Program-made: the position numbers and the translations under genes
The notes under the pieces: generated by a model
Told to the model about the DNA's origin: nothing
Seen by the model: the letters and a program-made list of their open reading frames with translations, nothing else
The model's database searches: none
Assembly (NCBI RefSeq): GCF_003334405.1
Contig: NZ_QOWM01000005.1
From: Escherichia coli
GTDB lineage: Bacteria; Pseudomonadota; Gammaproteobacteria; Enterobacterales; Enterobacteriaceae
Length of the DNA: 64,000 nucleotides
Direction: 5' to 3' (one strand)
Shown: piece by piece, positions 27,953 through 39,225 of the stretch
How positions within the stretch are numbered: position 1 is the stretch's first letter
How the letters are laid out: each line of letters begins with the position of its first letter

Positions 27953-28081
27953 GATTCGGCTCTCCATTTTTTGTTGCCTTAGATATCAATGAAAATGAAA
28001 AATGGCAGCGGAACGGAAAATCTGTTTTGTGAAAACACACGCATAAAAATGTTTTAAATCGGGTTTTAATGGACTCACAAG

Positions 28082-29276
<1,195 letters not shown>

Positions 29277-29378
29277 TGAGCGGTAGTAAAGTCCTAAAAC
29301 TTTAACCTGCCGTTAATGTCAACCTTGCGTAATGCACAATTACGTAAACAATTAAAATTATAAATATAGGAGTCCGGC

Positions 29379-30740
29379 GTGGAAAAAGAAAATATCACCA
29401 TCGATCCGCGTTCTTCATTTACTCCATCTTCGTCGGCAGATATTCCCGTGCCACCAGATGGATTAGTTCAACGCAGTACCCGAATTAAACGCATTCAAGC
29501 CACCGCCATGTTGTTATTATTTTTTGCGGCGGTAATCAATTATCTCGACCGCAGTTCGCTGTCGGTAGTAAATTTAACGATTCGTGAAGAATTGGGATTA
29601 AGTGCCACCGAAATCGGCGCTTTGCTCTCCGTGTTTTCACTCGCTTACGGGATTGCGCAACTTCCTTGCGGCCCACTATTGGATCGTAAAGGCCCACGCC
29701 TGATGCTGGGACTGGGGATGTTCTTCTGGTCACTGTTCCAGGCCATGTCTGGCATGGTGCACAGCTTTACGCAGTTCGTGTTGGTGCGTATTGGTATGGG
29801 GATTGGTGAAGCGCCGATGAACCCATGCGGTGTAAAAGTCATTAACGACTGGTTCAACATCAAAGAGCGCGGACGCCCGATGGGCTTTTTCAACGCAGCT
29901 TCTACCATTGGCGTTGCCGTAAGCCCACCGATTCTGGCGGCGATGATGCTGGTGATGGGCTGGCGCGGGATGTTTATTACCATTGGTGTACTGGGGATTT
30001 TTCTCGCCATCGGCTGGTATATGCTCTATCGCAACCGCGAGCACGTAGAACTGACTGCCGTTGAACAAGCTTATCTCAATGCAGGTAGCGTCAATGCCCG
30101 CCGAGATCCGCTCAGTTTTGCCGAATGGCGCAGCCTGTTCCGTAACCGCACAATGTGGGGAATGATGCTCGGATTCAGTGGCATCAACTACACTGCGTGG
30201 CTGTATCTGGCCTGGCTTCCTGGTTACCTGCAAACAGCCTATAACCTGGATTTAAAAAGCACAGGATTGATGGCGGCTATCCCTTTCCTGTTTGGGGCTG
30301 CCGGGATGCTGGTCAACGGTTACGTTACCGACTGGCTGGTCAAAGGGGGAATGGCTCCGATTAAAAGCCGTAAGATCTGCATTATTGCCGGGATGTTCTG
30401 TTCTGCCGCCTTTACGCTGGTCGTACCGCAAGCGACAACATCCATGACAGCGGTTCTGCTGATTGGCATGGCACTGTTTTGTATTCACTTTGCCGGAACA
30501 TCCTGCTGGGGCTTGATCCACGTCGCAGTTGCTTCTCGCATGACGGCGTCGGTGGGCAGTATCCAGAACTTTGCCAGCTTCATCTGCGCCTCTTTCGCGC
30601 CGATCATTACTGGTTTTATTGTTGATACCACCCATTCATTCCGTCTGGCACTAATCATCTGCGGTTGCGTCACTGCGGCGGGTGCACTGACGTACATCTT
30701 CCTGGTTCGTCAGCCGATCAACGCCCCACGGAAAGATTAA
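29379..30740 (+). CDS. lgoT: L-galactonate:H+ symporter (MFS)
   Basis: 453-aa 12-TM MFS ORF MEKENITIDPRSSFTPSSSADIPVPPDGLV. Confidence 0.9.
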   Translation: MEKENITIDPRSSFTPSSSADIPVPPDGLVQRSTRIKRIQATAMLLLFFAAVINYLDRSSLSVVNLTIREELGLSATEIGALLSVFSLAYGIAQLPCGPLLDRKGPRLMLGLGMFFWSLFQAMSGMVHSFTQFVLVRIGMGIGEAPMNPCGVKVINDWFNIKERGRPMGFFNAASTIGVAVSPPILAAMMLVMGWRGMFITIGVLGIFLAIGWYMLYRNREHVELTAVEQAYLNAGSVNARRDPLSFAEWRSLFRNRTMWGMMLGFSGINYTAWLYLAWLPGYLQTAYNLDLKSTGLMAAIPFLFGAAGMLVNGYVTDWLVKGGMAPIKSRKICIIAGMFCSAAFTLVVPQATTSMTAVLLIGMALFCIHFAGTSCWGLIHVAVASRMTASVGSIQNFASFICASFAPIITGFIVDTTHSFRLALIICGCVTAAGALTYIFLVRQPINAPRKD

Positions 30741-30749
30741 TCTCCCTAT

Positions 30750-30783
30750 GCCCGATAACATTTTGCTTATCGGGCATTTTTAT
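30750..30783. terminator. terminator hairpin between convergent lgoT and tsr
   Basis: gcccgataa-cattttg-cttatcgggc followed by attttta. Confidence 0.7.
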
Positions 30784-30788
30784 GGCGA

Positions 30789-32453
30789 TTAAAACGTTTC
30801 CCAGTTCTCCCCGCTATCTGCTACGGCCATTTTACGCGGCGCAGCTGGCGTCACGGTTTTTACCACAGCCGATGTTTCACGCTGATGTTGCTGCTGTTGC
30901 TGAATCCGGAACACTGCCACAGCTTCGGTCAGGCGACTGGCCTGCTCTTCCAGCGCGGCGGCGGCGGCGGCAGATTCTTCCACCAGCGCAGCGTTCTGTT
31001 GAGTTACCCGGTCCATCTCAGCGACCGCTAAGCCAACCTGATCGATACCACGGCTCTGCTCATCAGAAGCAGAAGCTATTTCGCCCATAATGTCCGTCAC
31101 GCGGGTCACAGCACTGACAATCTCCGCCATTGTTTCCCCGGCGCTTTCGACCAGCGTAGAGCCAACATCCACTTTCCCCACCGAGTCTTCAATCAGGCTT
31201 TTAATTTCACGAGCCGCCTGGGCGCTACGCTGGGCCAGATTACGCACTTCTCCCGCAACCACCGCAAAACCGCGCCCTTGCTCACCCGCACGCGCTGCTT
31301 CAACCGCCGCGTTCAAAGCCAGAATATTGGTCTGGAAGGCAATGCCGTCAATTACGCTGATAATATCGGCGATTTTCTGCGAGCTGGTGGAGATATCGCG
31401 CATAGTCTGTACTACGTTATCCACCACTTTGCCGCCACGTTGCGCCGTTTCAGAAGCACTTAACGCCAGGTGGCTGGCCTGGCGCGCATTCTCGGCGTTC
31501 TGTTTCACCGTTGCGGTCAGTTGCTCCATGCTGGCTGCCGTCTCTTCCAGCGAAGCGGCCTGTTGCTCGGTGCGCGAAGAGAGATCGTTATTGCCGGTGG
31601 CGATTTCGCTGGCACCGCTATAAATGGCATTGGCCCCGTTGCGCACATCACCGACGGTACGCATCAGCTCTCCCTGCATATGGCGCAAACTCTCTGCCAG
31701 TTGCCCCATCTCATTAGAGCCATCCACCTCAATCGGTTTCACCAGATCGCCGCCTGCAATATGACGAATGCTGTCAATCAGGCGATTCATTGGCGCTACC
31801 AGCGAGGCTTTAATACCGAACCAGACGGCGAAGATGACCGCCAGTACGACGATCATCACGCCCACCAGAATCCACATCGCCTGGCTGTAGGAGGCATTAT
31901 TATCGCTGACGGCGATATCATAGAGCCGATCGTTTTGCTCCATGTAAGCCACATACTGCTTCTCGAAACCGTCCTGATATCCCTGGGTCGGCTGATCAAA
32001 GAACTCGTTGATTTTGCCTGCACCTAACAGTTGGATCAGCTCCGCCAGCGCATTGTGATAAATATCGTAATTACGTTTGATCTCTGCCGCTGCGGCGGTG
32101 CTCTGACGCGGGTCACGCGGCAACGCTTCGTAATCCGCCCAGTTTTTTTCCGCCTGTTTCAGCGAAATACTGGCACTCTCCATCAGCTCAGCAACGGTTG
32201 AACCGCTACCAATATTATTCTGATCCATCATGTAGCGGATACCCGCGCGGTTGAGGGTGTTACGCGTCTGCAACAACGCGACCCAGCTGCCATTCAGCGT
32301 GGATTGCTGCTGGCGAATGGTTTGTAAAACAGTGAAATTTTCTTTGTCATTCTTTAAGGCATTAAAGAACAGACCGCCTGATGTCAGTTGTAAAAGGCCA
32401 AAAACGGCCAAAACCAGCAGTAAGCTGGTCACAATTTTGATACGTTTTAACAT
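30789..32453 (-). CDS. tsr: methyl-accepting chemotaxis protein I (serine chemoreceptor)
   Basis: 554-aa [24 protein letters not shown] ending NWETF pentapeptide. Confidence 0.95.
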
Positions 32454-32483
32454 GGTTTCTCTTTCCTGTGGACCGATGCAAGA

Positions 32484-32510
32484 TTTTCGGCCAGGAAAGG
32501 AAAAACTTTA
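32484..32510 (-). promoter_or_regulatory. sigma28 (FliA) class 3 promoter of tsr
   Basis: minus strand reads TAAAGTTT - 11 bp - GCCGAAAA, close to the TAAAGTTT-N11-GCCGATAA consensus, about 30 bp upstream of tsr ATG. Confidence 0.65.
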
Positions 32511-32829
32511 TGAATATCCCGCGGAGATTACGCCGAGTAATTTTATTCACACTCTGAATTTAAAAAGCCATTATTTACATAAATTACTCACAATATAAAT
32601 ATGTGATATGAATCACATATTTATCGTCACTTAAACGACGCCTTTGCCGCTCAACCGCAAAACTGACCGCTTACATCCCTAAAATAACCACTCAGTTATT
32701 TACCTTACTTTACGCGCGCGTAACTCTGGCAACATCACTACAGGATAGCGGTCAATTTACCTCCTCAAACGCAACGCAAACCTAGAACGGCTTCGGCCAA
32801 CTATTAATCAATACATGCCAGGTTTTACT

Positions 32830-34980
32830 ATGGATACTAAAAAGATATTCAAGCACATACCCTGGGTGATTCTCGGAATCATCGGTGCATTCTGCCTCGC
32901 GGTAGTTGCATTACGTCGGGGGGAGCACGTCAGCGCCCTGTGGATCGTGGTCGCCTCTGTGTCGGTGTATCTGGTGGCGTATCGCTACTACAGTCTGTAC
33001 ATCGCCCAGAAGGTGATGAAACTCGACCCCACGCGCGCGACGCCTGCGGTTATTAACAACGACGGTTTGAACTACGTTCCGACCAACCGTTACGTGTTGT
33101 TTGGTCACCACTTCGCCGCTATCGCCGGTGCTGGTCCGCTGGTGGGTCCGGTTCTCGCCGCGCAGATGGGCTACCTGCCTGGCACGCTGTGGCTGCTGGC
33201 GGGGGTCGTGCTGGCCGGTGCGGTTCAGGACTTTATGGTGCTGTTTATCTCCTCTCGCCGTAATGGCGCATCTCTTGGTGAGATGATCAAAGAAGAGATG
33301 GGACCAGTACCGGGGACTATCGCGCTGTTTGGCTGTTTCTTAATCATGATCATCATCCTCGCCGTCCTGGCGCTGATTGTGGTTAAAGCCCTGGCCGAAA
33401 GTCCGTGGGGTGTCTTCACCGTTTGCTCAACCGTACCGATTGCGCTGTTTATGGGTATCTACATGCGCTTTATTCGTCCGGGGCGTGTGGGTGAAGTCTC
33501 TGTCATTGGTATCGTGCTGCTGGTTGCCTCTATCTACTTCGGTGGCGTGATTGCTCACGATCCGTACTGGGGTCCGGCACTGACCTTTAAAGACACCACC
33601 ATTACCTTCGCGCTGATTGGCTATGCGTTTGTTTCCGCACTGCTGCCAGTGTGGCTGATCCTCGCACCGCGCGACTATCTGGCAACCTTCCTGAAAATCG
33701 GCGTTATCGTCGGCCTGGCGCTGGGTATCGTGGTGCTGAACCCGGAACTGAAAATGCCTGCCATGACCCAGTACATTGACGGTACTGGCCCGCTGTGGAA
33801 AGGCGCTCTGTTCCCGTTCCTGTTCATCACCATCGCCTGTGGTGCGGTATCTGGCTTCCACGCGCTGATCTCTTCCGGTACGACGCCAAAACTGCTGGCT
33901 AATGAAACCGACGCGCGTTTCATCGGCTACGGCGCAATGCTGATGGAGTCCTTCGTGGCGATTATGGCGCTGGTTGCTGCGTCCATCATCGAACCGGGTC
34001 TTTACTTCGCGATGAACACCCCGCCTGCTGGCCTTGGCATCACCATGCCTAACCTGCATGAAATGGGGGGCGAGAACGCGCCGATCATCATGGCGCAGCT
34101 GAAAGACGTTACCGCACACGCGGCAGCGACCGTCAGCTCCTGGGGCTTCGTGATTTCGCCAGAGCAGATCCTGCAAACCGCGAAAGACATTGGTGAGCCT
34201 TCTGTCCTGAACCGTGCAGGTGGTGCGCCGACGCTGGCGGTAGGTATCGCTCACGTGTTCCACAAAGTGCTGCCGATGGCTGACATGGGCTTCTGGTATC
34301 ACTTCGGTATTCTGTTCGAAGCACTGTTCATCCTGACCGCGCTGGATGCGGGTACCCGTTCTGGCCGCTTTATGCTGCAAGACCTGCTGGGTAACTTCAT
34401 CCCGTTCCTGAAAAAAACCGACTCTCTGGTTGCCGGTATCATCGGTACTGCGGGCTGTGTGGGTCTGTGGGGCTACCTGCTGTATCAGGGCGTGGTCGAT
34501 CCGCTGGGCGGCGTTAAGAGCCTGTGGCCGCTGTTCGGTATTTCCAACCAGATGCTGGCAGCCGTAGCGCTGGTACTGGGCACCGTTGTGCTGATTAAGA
34601 TGAAGCGCACCCAATACATCTGGGTAACTGTTGTTCCGGCTGTATGGCTGCTTATCTGCACCACCTGGGCGCTGGGCCTGAAACTGTTCAGCACCAACCC
34701 GCAGATGGAAGGCTTCTTCTACATGGCAAGCCAGTACAAAGAGAAGATTGCTAACGGTACTGACCTGACGACGCAGCAGATTGCCAACATGAACCACATC
34801 GTTGTGAACAACTACACCAACGCAGGTCTGAGTATTCTGTTCCTGATTGTGGTGTACAGCATCATCTTCTACGGTTTCAAAACCTGGCTTGCGGTGCGTA
34901 ACAGCGACAAACGTACTGACAAAGAAACACCGTACGTTCCAATCCCGGAAGGCGGCGTGAAGATCTCTTCGCACCACTAA
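32830..34980 (+). CDS. btsT: CstA-family pyruvate/H+ symporter
   Basis: 716-aa product from ATG 32830 (MDTKKIFKHIPWVILGIIGAF); track ORF starts 32815. Confidence 0.93.
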   Translation: MDTKKIFKHIPWVILGIIGAFCLAVVALRRGEHVSALWIVVASVSVYLVAYRYYSLYIAQKVMKLDPTRATPAVINNDGLNYVPTNRYVLFGHHFAAIAGAGPLVGPVLAAQMGYLPGTLWLLAGVVLAGAVQDFMVLFISSRRNGASLGEMIKEEMGPVPGTIALFGCFLIMIIILAVLALIVVKALAESPWGVFTVCSTVPIALFMGIYMRFIRPGRVGEVSVIGIVLLVASIYFGGVIAHDPYWGPALTFKDTTITFALIGYAFVSALLPVWLILAPRDYLATFLKIGVIVGLALGIVVLNPELKMPAMTQYIDGTGPLWKGALFPFLFITIACGAVSGFHALISSGTTPKLLANETDARFIGYGAMLMESFVAIMALVAASIIEPGLYFAMNTPPAGLGITMPNLHEMGGENAPIIMAQLKDVTAHAAATVSSWGFVISPEQILQTAKDIGEPSVLNRAGGAPTLAVGIAHVFHKVLPMADMGFWYHFGILFEALFILTALDAGTRSGRFMLQDLLGNFIPFLKKTDSLVAGIIGTAGCVGLWGYLLYQGVVDPLGGVKSLWPLFGISNQMLAAVALVLGTVVLIKMKRTQYIWVTVVPAVWLLICTTWALGLKLFSTNPQMEGFFYMASQYKEKIANGTDLTTQQIANMNHIVVNNYTNAGLSILFLIVVYSIIFYGFKTWLAVRNSDKRTDKETPYVPIPEGGVKISSHH

Positions 34981-34989
34981 CCGTGTTTA

Positions 34990-35016
34990 GCCCCGCTTCG
35001 GCGGGGCTTTGTTCTT
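34990..35016 (+). terminator. hairpin after btsT
   Basis: gccccgc-ttcg-gcggggc followed by tttgttctt. Confidence 0.6.
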
Positions 35017-35029
35017 ATCAGAGTGAACT

Positions 35030-35233
35030 ATGTTTGGTAACTTAGGACAGGCAAAAAAATATCTCGGCCAGGCGGCGAAGATGTTGATTGGCATTCCAGA
35101 CTACGACAACTACGTCGAGCATATGAAGACCAACCATCCCGACAAGCCGTACATGAGCTATGAAGAATTCTTCCGCGAACGCCAGAACGCACGCTACGGC
35201 GGCGATGGTAAAGGCGGTATGCGCTGTTGTTAA
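35030..35233 (+). CDS. yjiX: small protein YjiX (DUF466)
   Basis: 67-aa [51 protein letters not shown]. Confidence 0.85.
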
Positions 35234-35243
35234 TGGAGAGAGC

Positions 35244-36200
35244 ATGAACCCGATTGCAGTTACCCTACTCACCGGTTTTTTAGGCGCGGGCAAAACCACC
35301 CTGCTGCGCCATATTCTTAACGAACAACACGGCTACAAGATTGCCGTGATTGAAAACGAATTCGGCGAAGTCTCCGTTGATGATCAACTGATTGGCGACC
35401 GCGCCACGCAGATCAAAACGCTGACCAACGGCTGCATCTGCTGTTCGCGCTCCAACGAGCTGGAAGACGCACTACTCGACCTGCTGGATAATCTCGACAA
35501 GGGCAATATTCAGTTCGACCGTCTGGTCATTGAATGCACCGGCATGGCCGATCCCGGCCCGATTATTCAGACCTTTTTCTCCCATGAGATTTTATGCCAG
35601 CGCTACCTGCTGGACGGCGTGATTGCGCTGGTGGATGCGGTACATGCCGATGAGCAGATGAACCAGTTCACCATCGCCCAGTCCCAGGTTGGCTACGCCG
35701 ACCGTATTCTGCTGACGAAAACCGACGTCGCAGGCGAAGCAGAGAAACTGCGTGAACGCCTGGCGCGCATCAACGCCCGCGCACCGGTCTACACCGTTAC
35801 CCACGGCGATATCGACCTGGGCCTTCTGTTCAACACCAACGGTTTTATGCTGGAAGAAAACGTCGTCAGCACCAAACCGCGTTTCCACTTTATCACGGAC
35901 AAACAAAACGATATTTCGTCGATTGTGGTGGAACTGGATTACCCGGTAGATATCAGCGAAGTTTCCCGGGTGATGGAAAACCTGCTGCTGGAGTCGGCGG
36001 ATAAACTACTGCGTTACAAAGGGATGCTATGGATTGACGGCGAACCTAACCGCCTGCTATTCCAGGGCGTCCAACGCCTCTACAGCGCCGACTGGGACCG
36101 CCCGTGGGGCGATGAAAAACCGCATAGCACGATGGTGTTTATCGGGATTCAGTTGCCGGAGGAAGAGATTCGGGCAGCGTTTGCGGGGTTGAGGAAGTAA
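35244..36200 (+). CDS. yjiA: COG0523/CobW-family GTPase YjiA
   Basis: 318-aa product MNPIAVTLLTGFLGAGKTTLLRHIL with P-loop and CxCC motif. Confidence 0.93.
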   Translation: MNPIAVTLLTGFLGAGKTTLLRHILNEQHGYKIAVIENEFGEVSVDDQLIGDRATQIKTLTNGCICCSRSNELEDALLDLLDNLDKGNIQFDRLVIECTGMADPGPIIQTFFSHEILCQRYLLDGVIALVDAVHADEQMNQFTIAQSQVGYADRILLTKTDVAGEAEKLRERLARINARAPVYTVTHGDIDLGLLFNTNGFMLEENVVSTKPRFHFITDKQNDISSIVVELDYPVDISEVSRVMENLLLESADKLLRYKGMLWIDGEPNRLLFQGVQRLYSADWDRPWGDEKPHSTMVFIGIQLPEEEIRAAFAGLRK

Positions 36201-36233
36201 TTTTGGATGATGGCCGCCATGTGGCGGCCTGAA

Positions 36234-36536
36234 TTATTTTTTGTTCTGATCGCGCAGCATCGCTTCACGTAAAATTGCGTTCAGGCGAGTTTGATAGCCT
36301 TTACCTGGTCGCTTCAACCATTCCATCACATCAGCATCAATACGCACCGAAGCCTGAGTTTTCAATGGCCGATAAAACTTACCGCGTTCGGCGTTAGACC
36401 ATTGCTCATCGCTGGAAGGTGGGATATCACTGTAATCAATATCTTCGTCGGATTTATTCGCCAGCGCCTTCAGTTCGGCCTCATGCTGCACATCGAGTGT
36501 AGAGGAGGTCCCTCGTTTATGTTTAACCATGCTCAT
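36234..36536 (-). CDS. BrnA-like antitoxin (100 aa, RHH/CopG-like)
   Basis: ORF from ATG 36536 (MSMVKHKRGTSSTLDVQHEAELKAL...VRIDADVMEWLKRPGKGYQTRLNAILREAML); start overlaps the stop of the upstream toxin frame (ATGAGCATGGTTAA). Confidence 0.7.
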   Translation of the reverse strand: MSMVKHKRGTSSTLDVQHEAELKALANKSDEDIDYSDIPPSSDEQWSNAERGKFYRPLKTQASVRIDADVMEWLKRPGKGYQTRLNAILREAMLRDQNKK

Positions 36537-36794
36537 AGCGATTCCTCTCTTTACGATCTGCTTTTCGTGCACTGATGATTCGAATAATTTCATTTCCGCT
36601 TTCGAAACGGATGGTATGCGCAACCAGAATAACCACGATGCCGTAATGTCTGCCAGCGATACTCACCGTTTTCTATGCGTTCTTGCTGTGACAAATGTTG
36701 TGGATCATCAAACAATAACACCGCATCTTCAAAGCGGATGCCATGTTTCACCCGATTACTTTTGGCCTTGTTTTCATCCCATTCAAACTCCATT
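36523..36794 (-). pseudogene. BrnT-like (DUF497) toxin gene disrupted by a 1-nt frameshift near 36640-36650
   Basis: N-terminal frame MEFEWDENKAKSNRVKHGIRFEDAVLLFDDPQHLSQQERIENGEYRWQTL then runs into a stop at 36590; the BrnT-like C-terminus GIVVILVAHTIRFESGNEIIRIISARKADRKERNRYEHG is in a different frame ending at TAA 36523. Confidence 0.65.
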
Positions 36795-36997
36795 GGCATA
36801 ATTGCCATCCCTAATTGTATATACAAAAATGTATCTACAATTATTCTGCAATTATAGCGTTGATGTTGGAAATAGCATCACGTTTCGAATAATCAACCAT
36901 GAAATTGACAATGAGTAAGTTGGACTTGATTCATCCAATAGAATTTCTCGCCTGACATGGCACACTAAACACCTCGCTGTCGGGTAATGACTCCAAC

Positions 36998-37501
36998 TTA
37001 CTGATAGTGTTTTATGTTCAGATAATGCCCGATGACCTTGTCATGCAGCTCCACCGATTTTGAGAACGACAGTGACTTCCGTCCCAGCCTTGCCAGATGT
37101 TGTCTCAGATTCAGATTATGTCGCTCAATGCGCTGAGTGTAACGCTTGCTGATAACGTGCAGCTTTCCCTTCAGGCGTGATTCATACAGCGGCCAGCCAT
37201 CCGTCATCTATACCACGACCTCAAAGGCCGACAGCAGGCTCAGAAGACGTTCCAGTGTGGCCAGAGTGCGTTCACCGAAGACGTGCGCCACAACCGTCCT
37301 CCGTATCCTGTCATACGCGTAAAACAGCCAGCGCTGACGTGATTTAGCACCGACGTAGCCCCACTGTTCGTCCATTTCAGCGCAGACAATCACATCACTG
37401 CCCGGTTGTATGCGCGAGGTTACCGACTGCGGCCTGAGTTTTTTAAGTGACGTAAAACCGTGTTGAGGCCAACGCCCATAATGCGTGCACTGGCGCGACA
37501 T
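36998..37501 (-). CDS. insB: IS1 InsB reading frame (expressed as InsAB' by frameshifting)
   Basis: ORF ending [69 protein letters not shown]. Confidence 0.9.
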
Positions 37502-37695
37502 CCGACGCCATTCATGGCCATATCAATGATTTTCTGGTGCGTACCGGGCTGAGAGGCGGTGTAAGTGAACTGTAGTTGCCATGTTTTACGGCAATGAGAG
37601 CAGAGATAGCGCTGATGTCCGGCAGTGCTTTTGCCGTTACGCACCACGCCTTCAGTAGCGGAGCAGGAAGGACATCTGATGGAAATGGAAGCCAC
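37420..37695 (-). CDS. insA: IS1 protein InsA
   Basis: 91-aa [46 protein letters not shown]. Confidence 0.95.
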
Positions 37696-37750
37696 GCAAG
37701 CACCTTAAAATCACCATCATACACTAAATCAGTAAGTTGGCAGCATTACC

Positions 37751-37846
37751 CGGATTCCATAATGATTCCACGCCCCGTTATGACAAATCTGCCGCCGATC
37801 TTGCCTGGCAAAGGACACTGAAATGGTTCGATAAATATCTCTCCTG
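37751..37846 (+). pseudogene. 3' remnant (31 codons plus stop) of a dienelactone-hydrolase-family gene truncated by IS1
   Basis: frame starting directly at the IS1 boundary encodes [31 protein letters not shown]-stop, which resembles a DLH-family C-terminus. Confidence 0.5.
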
Positions 37847-37965
37847 ATAGGTTTATCTCTTACGGGATTACGTCTTAAACAAGCATGAAAAAATAGCGTG
37901 CGCAAAAGTCGTTCTTTGCCTAAAATATCGCTATATATGGCGATATATAGCGAATAAAGTGAACG

Positions 37966-39225
37966 ATGAATAACCATTTTGGTAAAGGCTTAATGGCGGG
38001 ATTAAAAGCAACGCATGCCGCCACGCTGTTTTTCCCGATGGAGTTGATTTTGTATGATTTTGCCGCGTACCTGTCGACGGACCTGATTCAGCCGGGGATC
38101 ATTAATGTGGTCCGTGATTTTAATGCCGATGTCAGTCTGGCCCCGGCAGCCGTCAGTCTCTATCTCGCGGGCGGTATGGCGTTACAGTGGCTGCTGGGGC
38201 CGCTTTCCGACAGGATTGGCCGCAGGCCGGTGCTGATTACCGGGGCGCTAATATTTACCCTTGCCTGCGCTGCGACAATGTTCACAACGTCTATGACACA
38301 GTTTCTTATCGCGCGTGCAATTCAGGGCACCAGTATCTGTTTTATTGCCACCGTTGGTTATGTCACGGTGCAGGAGGCGTTCGGCCAGACAAAAGGGATC
38401 AGGTTGATGGCGATTATCACCTCCATCGTACTGATTGCGCCGATTATTGGCCCGCTTTCCGGCGCAGCTCTGATGCACTTTGTGCACTGGAAAGTCCTTT
38501 TTGCCATCATTGCGGTTATGGGGTTTATCTCATTTGTTGGCTTACTGCTGGCGATGCCAGAGACGGTGAAGCGCGGCGCGGTTCCATTTAGCGCCAAAAG
38601 CGTCTTGCGCGATTTTCGTAATGTCTTTTGCAATCGGCTGTTCCTCTTTGGCGCAGCAACCATCTCTTTAAGCTATATCCCAATGATGAGTTGGGTGGCT
38701 GTCTCGCCGGTGATCCTGATCGACGCGGGCGGCTTAACAACTTCGCAGTTCGCCTGGACACAGGTTCCGGTGTTCGGCGCGGTGATTGTCGCGAATGCCA
38801 TCGTGGCGCGTTTCGTTAAAGATCCAACCGAACCGCGCTTCATCTGGCGTGCCGTACCCATTCAACTGGTCGGCCTCGCGCTGTTGATTATCGGCAATCT
38901 GCTGTCACCGCACGTCTGGCTGTGGTCGGTGCTGGGCACCAGTTTGTATGCTTTCGGGATTGGTTTGATCTTCCCGACCTTATTCCGCTTTACGCTTTTT
39001 TCCAATAACTTACCGAAAGGGACCGTCTCCGCATCGCTGAATATGGTGATCCTGATGGTGATGTCTGTCTCGGTCGAAATCGGCCGCTGGCTGTGGTTTA
39101 ACGGCGGTCGCTTGCCGTTTCATCTGTTAGCCGTCGTGGCGGGCGTTATCGTCGTTTTCACCCTGGCAGGATTGCTTAATCGCGTGCGCCAACATCAGGC
39201 TGCCGAGCTGGCGGAGGAGCGGTGA
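37966..39225 (+). CDS. mdtM: MFS multidrug efflux transporter MdtM
   Basis: 419-aa ORF with MFS motif [16 protein letters not shown]; N-terminal residues and true start not verified. Confidence 0.88.

Follow-up and report, generated by a model that had tools for sequence, protein, structure and literature searches.

Which chain of events can leave a single IS1 element, without any duplication of its target, between the upstream flank of a toxin gene and the last codons of a hydrolase gene? The question is raised by a stretch of 64,000 nucleotides from Escherichia coli (assembly GCF_003334405.1, contig NZ_QOWM01000005.1), hereafter referred to as the window, in which the insertion sequence IS1 lies between brnT and the efflux gene mdtM. 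A preliminary description of this DNA had regarded the sequence abutting the element as the 3' stump of a dienelactone-hydrolase-like gene whose 5' part had been lost, and had proposed an IS1-mediated adjacent deletion or a recombination between IS1 copies as the likely history. As reported below, the stump is probably an ectopic copy of yghX DNA, and it belongs to a longer yghX-yghW segment that is fused in frame to mdtM at the edge of a missing restriction island. The structural description, taken alone, can be regarded as nearly certain. We assign a probability of about 60% to the whole account, that is, this structure together with its origin by templated repair and its subsequent spread; for the specific repair route suggested by the sequences, the odds appear to be even.

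Population counts refer to 5426 complete E. coli genomes. Strain ATCC 25922 was used as the IS1-free reference for the locus, K-12 as the reference for its framework, and KO11FL as the reference for the native yghX-yghW region. Alleles in which the right end of IS1 is joined to the yghX stump, as in the window, are referred to as type 1, and those in which it is joined to native DNA upstream of mdtM as type 2.

The IS1 Element and Its Unduplicated Flanks

The IS1F-like element spans 768 bp (36983-37750, minus strand) and was recognized from its terminal repeats, its open reading frames (ORFs) and the NCBIfam model transpos_IS1. A length of about 768 bp and imperfect terminal inverted repeats starting with GGTRATG are traits of the IS1 family (PMC12428005), and the window element shows both, its two 23-bp ends (36983-37005 and 37728-37750) agreeing at 20 of 23 positions. 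The left terminus is thus the one originally given (36983), while the right one lies at 37750 and not at 37749. The 9-mers flanking the element, TCGCTGTCG (36974-36982) and CGGATTCCA (37751-37759), are different, as had been noticed, and no target duplication was found for any flank length from 7 to 14 nt; the view that IS1 did not reach this position through one simple transposition is therefore upheld.

The Origin of the Stump and Its Fusion to mdtM

The 270 bp following IS1 (37751-38020) correspond, base by base in the comparison with KO11FL, to the last 97 nt of yghX, a 118-nt spacer and the first 18 codons of yghW. The positions 37751-37992 are 96-99% identical to native yghX-yghW DNA, which 5418 of the 5426 genomes carry in its usual place between gpr and hybO; on the K-12 map, mdtM is about 1.4 Mb away. 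The three parts of the copy are all on the plus strand: the yghX 3' end, i.e., the hydrolase stump, at 37751-37847 (assigned through identity to the native locus and the NCBIfam YghX model), the spacer at 37848-37965 (from the KO11FL comparison), and the yghW codons, identical to native yghW of KO11FL and now forming the 5' end of the mdtM frame, at 37966-38019.

The resemblance of the stump to the C-terminus of a dienelactone hydrolase was borne out. Indeed, the frame at 37752-37847 matches positions 263-292 of the 292 of the NCBIfam YghX hydrolase model NF041440 (E=3e-14), and full-length YghX belongs to the Pfam family DLH (PF01738, E=1.5e-47). The IS1 junction splits the conserved His codon of the HGF motif, and the stump retains 31 of the 295 yghX codons, with no start codon and far from a complete hydrolase domain; the NCBI Prokaryotic Genome Annotation Pipeline (PGAP) calls it a pseudogene with a "missing N-terminus". 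The idea that it is what remains of a gene once residing here is not supported: the sequence is a near-exact ectopic copy of yghX, whose native locus is intact in essentially all E. coli. The stump is thus probably an ectopic copy and not the remnant of a local gene.

The other end of the copy lies within the coding sequence of mdtM. The homology to yghW ends at 38020, and that to mdtM (from K-12, ATCC 25922 and type 2 alleles) begins at 38014, so that the crossover falls in the 7-nt microhomology CATGCCG (38014-38020, plus strand), corresponding to yghW codons 17-19 and mdtM codons 8-10. The motif occurs in both parents in the same frame, being read as ..T H A.. in YghW and as ..R H A.. in MdtM. 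The result is a yghW'-'mdtM fusion ORF of 419 amino acids (37966-39225, plus strand), present in the ORF list and assigned to the NCBIfam MdtM equivalog NF011932, which its residues 15-414 match with 853 bits (cut-off 700); its 16 N-terminal residues derive from YghW. PGAP starts a 410-amino-acid MdtM at the second ATG, at 37993 (WP_001339512.1). Since the join falls within mdtM, the native promoter, the leader and codons 1-7 of this gene are absent from type 1 alleles.

The Missing Restriction Island

The locus is the immigration control region of E. coli, extending from yjiA to mdtM. The conserved framework gene yjiA (35244-36200, plus strand) was identified from the PGAP annotation of the identical H10407 locus and by blast against K-12; the homology to K-12 ends at its stop codon (36200) and returns at 38014, inside mdtM. 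In K-12, the yjiA-mdtM interval is a 19-kb region embedding mrr, hsdRMS, symE, mcrBC, yjiV/T/S/R and rpnD; in the window, the same interval contains only brnA, a frameshifted brnT, IS1 and the stump.

The DNA upstream of brnT (36800-36982, strand not assigned) is conserved and matches ATCC 25922 up to TCGCTGTCG. This strain reads TCGCTGTCG|TTAAGGGATTACCGTG at the point corresponding to the left junction, and 13 bp further on a restriction endonuclease gene begins, which is followed by hsdM, hsdS, hsdR, symE, yjiS, yjiR, rpn and mdtM. The same left flank occurs without IS1 in about 650 genomes. Compared with ATCC 25922, the window is devoid of about 11.55 kb, including the mdtM promoter and the first seven codons of this gene. 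A large deletion must therefore belong to the history of the locus, because in IS1-free genomes the identical left flank enters about 11.5 kb of restriction genes, and IS1 marks the point at which the immigration control region lost its cargo.

The proposal of an adjacent deletion or of a recombination between IS1 copies thus captures the large deletion, and it fits the type 2 allele, in which the single IS1 is bounded on both sides by the DNA expected from a plain IS1-bounded deletion. It does not suffice for the window, which needs the further illegitimate join at 38014-38020. Here the left flank adjoins the missing segment, but the right flank is not island DNA. Accordingly, the search for an uninterrupted ancestral arrangement, which had been recommended for both flanks, succeeded on the left side, in ATCC 25922, whereas the right flank was traced to yghX-yghW and not to the island.

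The toxin-antitoxin genes next to the deletion are on the minus strand. The antitoxin gene brnA (36234-36536) is intact, according to the annotation of H10407, SE15 and ATCC 25922 and to the Pfam BrnA_antitoxin matches in related loci, while the toxin gene brnT (36523-36799) is a pseudogene with an 11-bp deletion between 36646 and 36647, as revealed by the alignment to H10407. The same 277-nt frameshifted brnT is present in the type 2 strains TBE6 and QDFD216, and not in the type 1 genomes inspected.

Distribution of the Two Alleles

The left junction with IS1 is shared by 1113 of the 5426 genomes. The type 1 junction between IS1 and the stump is present in 664 genomes and the yghW'-'mdtM fusion in 661; from these figures the fusion never occurs without IS1, and no genome carrying it in the absence of the element was found among the 5426. 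The type 2 right junction, IS1|AAATTTTAATTACAC, was detected in 496 genomes, with about 450-500 carrying the type 2 allele overall; as 664 and 496 together exceed 1113, about 47 genomes combine the type 2 right junction with a non-standard left side.

Type 2 alleles share the left junction of the window, the right end of their IS1 lies on native DNA 270 bp upstream of mdtM, and they also lack a target duplication. Their IS1 copies differ from those of type 1 at 3-6 of the 768 nt. To judge from its sequence, the type 2 allele is exactly what would be produced by an IS1 adjacent deletion or by a resident IS1 recombining with a copy of itself that had hopped nearby. This is in agreement with mutation-accumulation data, according to which IS1 hops locally and recombination between IS copies yields deletions (PMC5009759).

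In the public assembly collection, 14,635 blocks contain exactly the fusion-type MdtM protein, and it was found beside brnAT in all the 10 places that were read. Neither a 24-mer across the fusion nor a 29-mer across the IS1|stump junction occurs in the 100,044 species-representative genomes of GTDB.

A Possible History of the Locus

The left junction, being common to type 1 and type 2, is taken as the older, anchored end of the rearrangement. We suggest that an IS1 already resided at the brnT-side boundary and that a break to the right of it may have been repaired using as homologous template a second IS1 copy, located in the native yghX. The synthesis would then have left the template IS1, run through 270 nt of yghX-yghW, and been closed on mdtM via the 7-nt microhomology CATGCCG. 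Such a route would belong to the class of homology-facilitated illegitimate recombination or templated patch repair, and the allele that it generated would later have spread between lineages by homologous recombination. Templated repair on a second IS1 is the shortest route leading to one junction at an IS1 terminus and another at a microhomology.

Several findings weigh against this history. No IS1 was found at the predicted site of native yghX in any of the 5426 genomes, so that the proposed template is hypothetical; nor did any of them combine an IS1 next to the brnT flank, a duplicated target and the island behind the element, or show a simple IS1 insertion at position -270 of mdtM with the island present. 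Moreover, two polymorphisms of the element (TAG/TGG within insB and T/C at 37250) are found in both types and do not order type 1 and type 2 with respect to each other, and in both types some alleles have an intact IS1 here, which is compatible with transposase-driven routes.

Candidates for a precursor were discarded one after the other. A query across the predicted yghX site missed the intact junction in only 7 of 5423 genomes; the one of these seven that was examined, NCTC9041, turned out to carry an unrelated large replacement in place of an IS1 insertion in yghX. This type 1 strain (L010, 42571-48960) has no native yghX region, its ectopic stump being its only yghX sequence, and past dkgA it contains a truncated yqhD followed by remnants of IS4 and IS30 and by fragments of a type VI secretion system. 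The sole match to the predicted junction query was STK78-E (H366), where IS1 interrupts the 3' end of yghX some 60 bp downstream of where it was predicted; in UID2309220033 (L009, 4293-4990), an oppositely oriented IS1 occupies the yghX-yghW spacer. Two genomes have thus independently acquired IS1 no more than about 130 bp from the expected position, which lends plausibility to a donor IS1 in yghX, and this short AT-rich stretch of the native yghX-yghW region appears to be a recurrent IS1 target.

The coding capacity of the window element was also considered. On the minus strand it harbors insA (37420-37695), the A6C motif TTAAAAAAC (37438-37446), which is the site of the -1 frameshift joining insA and insB', and an insB' interrupted by a TAG codon (37208-37210). 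Its three ORF fragments cover positions 1-81, 75-153 and 156-199 of the NCBIfam model NF033558 (transpos_IS1). The transposase is not intact, TAG replacing the TGG that is found at the equivalent position in QDFD216, TBE6, L013 and L019, and PGAP labels the identical IS1 copy of H10407 "internal stop"; the window IS1 is fixed and dead in this genome. An ordering of the two types based on this stop codon was attempted and rejected, because both TAG and TGG were found in each type; for the same reason, the dead transposase of the window is silent on the state of IS1 at the time of the rearrangement.

Alternative Routes

IS1 junctions without a target duplication are a classic signature of IS1 adjacent deletion, and the absence of such a duplication here might suggest that a longer, or even complete, ectopic yghX-yghW'-mdtM arrangement once existed at the mdtM end of the island and that the resident IS1 underwent an adjacent deletion rightward into it, by which the island disappeared together with the 5' part of the hydrolase gene. 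An intact IS1 is found at this position in part of the genomes of either type, and this, like the left junction common with type 2, fits the scheme, and IS-anchored deletions are documented (PMC5009759). However, it requires an earlier placement of yghX-yghW' and a second junction that is not known, hence more steps, and the fusion was never encountered without the IS1|stump junction (661 vs. 664 of the 5426 genomes); we therefore consider this scheme unlikely, although it deserves some weight. Another route would start from a tandem duplication of about 1.4 Mb, extending from mdtM to yghW and generated through microhomology, after which an IS1 in the upstream copy of yghX would have deleted leftward to the brnT flank, removing one duplicate along with the island. 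In both K-12 and H10407, yghX-yghW and mdtM have the same orientation; therefore, the yghW'|mdtM join looks exactly like the joint of such a duplication, and it does fall at a 7-nt microhomology. Nonetheless, the duplication would contain oriC and need to be maintained long enough for a rare deletion to take place, and the left junction would be the newer one, yet it is identical in type 2, implying that the same target was used twice or that recombination intervened later. On this balance, we regard the tandem duplication as quite improbable.

The exact coincidence between the start of the patch and the IS1 terminus, as well as the insertion of IS1 in or near native yghX in other strains, might also be explained if IS1 and the 270 bp of yghX-yghW had moved as one unit, with a true left end and a surrogate right end in yghW. 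This idea has very little probability: the 1038-bp unit has no flanking duplication (TCGCTGTCG at 36974-36982 vs. CCACGCTGT at 38021-38029), the end of the patch, CATGCCG, agrees with the IS1 terminus CATTACC at 4 of 7 positions, and the left junction is identical in type 2. Furthermore, the flanks of the unit are 11.5 kb apart in IS1-free genomes, so that a deletion would be needed anyway.

Spread of the Allele and Mosaic Structure of the Window

The spread of the type 1 allele by homologous recombination is inferred from the comparison of its flanks. Those of the type 1 strain SE15 are 99.7-99.9% identical to the window, and over the same flanks ATCC 25922 is 96-98.4% identical. We take SE15 and ATCC 25922 to belong both to phylogroup B2.

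The window is itself, as far as its sequence reveals, a mosaic in which a left flank of type 2 is combined with an IS1 and a patch of type 1. The region 28000-36982 is 100% identical to the type 2 strain TBE6, including the 11-bp brnT deletion and a copy of ISKpn26; the IS1 is 100% identical to that of the type 1 strain H10407, and the patch differs from the H10407 one by a single base; lastly, mdtM and the downstream DNA (to 42000) are about 98% identical to every allele sampled. The exact combination of flank, IS1, patch and mdtM found in the window is present in no complete RefSeq E. coli genome.

The IS5-like ISKpn26 (about 28083-29276, with ends GGAAGGTGCGAATAAG) takes the place of 1037 bp that include the whole lgoR gene. 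It is flanked by CAAG and TGAG, with no YTAR duplication, and represents a second IS-associated deletion in the window, which is common to TBE6, QDFD216 and other strains.

Predicted Expression of mdtM

Given the loss of its native upstream region, mdtM in type 1 alleles must, to judge from the sequence, depend for its transcription either on the yghW promoter in the copy or on the IS1 junction, with a predicted product that is a YghW-MdtM N-terminal hybrid. The copied spacer contains a -35-like TTGCCT (37916-37921), and a constitutive yghW promoter was assigned to the yghX-yghW spacer of K-12 through systematic evolution of ligands by exponential enrichment (SELEX) with the RpoD holoenzyme (PMC3946193). 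The open frame, this K-12 RpoD SELEX site and the consensus-like hexamers are the elements on which the predicted promoter capture rests. The terminator scan predicted no plus-strand terminator between the stump and mdtM, and a scan of 36000-38600 with Rfam gave nothing credible, the sole hit having E=0.34.

Two other features of this region may be mentioned. A hybrid promoter-like site directed toward mdtM (37737-37766) combines a -35 TTGGCA in the right end of IS1 with a -10 AATGAT in the stump, separated by an 18-nt spacer and matching the consensus at 9 of 12 positions. In the copied spacer, an inverted repeat with perfect 11-bp arms, TCGCTATATAT-GGCG-ATATATAGCGA (37928-37953), lies just before the Shine-Dalgarno sequence of yghW and has an operator-like appearance; we know of no regulator binding to it, and type 1 copies are variable at 37926, 37941 and 37952, inside or beside the repeat.

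The Shine-Dalgarno sequence of yghW (37956-37959) is AAAG in the window and GAGG in native yghW. In the 14 type 1 copies that were compared with two native yghX-yghW copies, AAAG occurs 11 times, GAAG twice and AAGG once, GAGG being found in both native copies, so that both single-step intermediates between the native and the most common sequence exist. Because the only patch-specific substitutions observed in the copies inspected fall in this tetranucleotide, their clustering suggests that selection might have tuned translation after the fusion.

One can go further and speculate that the patch represents an adaptive rewiring of mdtM, which would bring a pump for bile salts, alkaline pH and multiple drugs under the control of the yghW promoter and of a palindromic operator, with a new N-terminus, in about one-eighth of E. 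coli genomes. We put this idea forward as a tentative one and consider it rather doubtful.

Two sequence variants near the fusion point are also worth recording. At 38042 the window has a non-synonymous change, reading PM(E)L in place of the PM(A)L of all other mdtM alleles inspected. In the type 1 genome GCA_053102915.1 (L018, 5232-6000), a second, IS1A-like IS1 lies within the copied yghW codons, at GCATCACC|ATGGCGGGAT; it ends directly before the second ATG and thus lies between mdtM on the one hand and the yghW promoter with the first ATG on the other.

The IS1-End-Like Sequence outside the Element

A sequence outside the left end of IS1 had been described as sharing an 11-bp core with the IS1 terminus and as a possible relic of an older insertion. 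The core is real, but the sequence lies at 36914-36936 (plus strand) and not at 36924-36948, and its distance from IS1 is 46 bp and not about 35. The 11-mer itself, AGTAAGTTGGA, occupies 36914-36924, i.e., 59-69 bp outside IS1, and is inverted with respect to the left end of the element (36992-37002). Nowhere else in the remaining 63 kb of the window does a stretch of 11 nt or more match one or the other IS1 end; shuffling a 150-bp flank with its composition preserved gave, post hoc, P ~0.0045 for such a match. This uniqueness and the exactness of the match are what might speak for a remnant of an older IS1-family element. However, the similarity does not reach past a 17-nt stretch with 15 matches, neither the body nor the other end of an IS1 is found next to it, and the orientation would lay the body of the supposed element across the brnT promoter. 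The 11-mer is part of the conserved region upstream of brnT and is unchanged, together with its surroundings, in the IS1-free ATCC 25922; as it exists in IS1-free alleles, it was not made by the window IS1. We consequently find the relic highly improbable, and a chance match or a target-site feature likelier. In work reportedly due to Galas (1980) and Gamas (1987), the ends of IS1 are said to contain sites for the integration host factor and IS1 hot spots to resemble IS1 ends.

Implications

The annotation of a "dienelactone hydrolase, missing N-terminus" by PGAP in hundreds of E. coli genomes reflects a duplicated yghX fragment and gives no evidence of a gene lost at this place. About one-fifth of complete E. 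coli genomes are without the whole hsd/mcr/mrr island through IS1-marked alleles, and in 12% of the genomes the promoter, the leader and the first codons of mdtM have been replaced; this allele should be kept in mind whenever strains are compared for the expression of MdtM, for their tolerance of bile or alkaline conditions, or for low-level drug efflux. The allele is, moreover, a neat illustration from nature of a presumed repair product that is joined within an IS on one side and across 7 nt of microhomology on the other.

Comparison with Known Systems

Much of what is found at this locus is already known or annotated, namely IS1, IS1-linked deletions, restriction-minus alleles of the island and the pseudogene calls. 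In the literature searched, we found no description of the yghX origin of the stump, of the yghW-mdtM fusion, or of an IS1 beside mdtM.

With IS1-associated deletions the window shares a single retained IS1, whose termini are precisely joined to non-contiguous DNA, the absence of an 8-9-bp duplication and the loss of about 11.5 kb. The type 2 allele fits this class fully, whereas in the window the DNA at the right end is a 270-bp copy from about 1.4 Mb away, closed on mdtM through microhomology.

The variation of the hsd, mcr and mrr cassettes in the immigration control region concerns the same locus, with framework genes that are kept and a cargo that is variable or absent. Restriction-minus strains such as W and Crooks are known (PMC3032704), and alleles of the region are exchanged by recombination (PMC4498929). 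The window departs from this pattern in that yjiPRS belong to the published conserved frame, while yjiS, yjiR and rpn (yjiP) are missing here, and in that its boundary falls inside the coding sequence of mdtM.

The combination of a long homology, provided by IS1, with a 7-nt microhomology, and the replacement of resident DNA by a short foreign patch, recall homology-facilitated illegitimate recombination and microhomology-dependent templated repair. In the present case, the mechanism is read from its product alone, and no second IS1 was found at the required site of yghX among the 5426 genomes.

Lastly, as in the capture of promoters by IS elements (the activation of bgl by IS1 or IS5, and the upregulation of efflux genes), an IS-linked rearrangement has swapped the regulatory region of a downstream gene, and the window shares with these cases an outward -35-like TTGGCA in the IS1 end and a -10-like hexamer in the flank. 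It differs from them in that the candidate promoter is a duplicated chromosomal one, that of yghW, and in that the N-terminal codons were also swapped in frame. On the basis of its sequence, the locus can thus be viewed as an ordinary IS-mediated rearrangement combined with a predicted, and apparently undescribed, capture of a promoter and an N-terminus.

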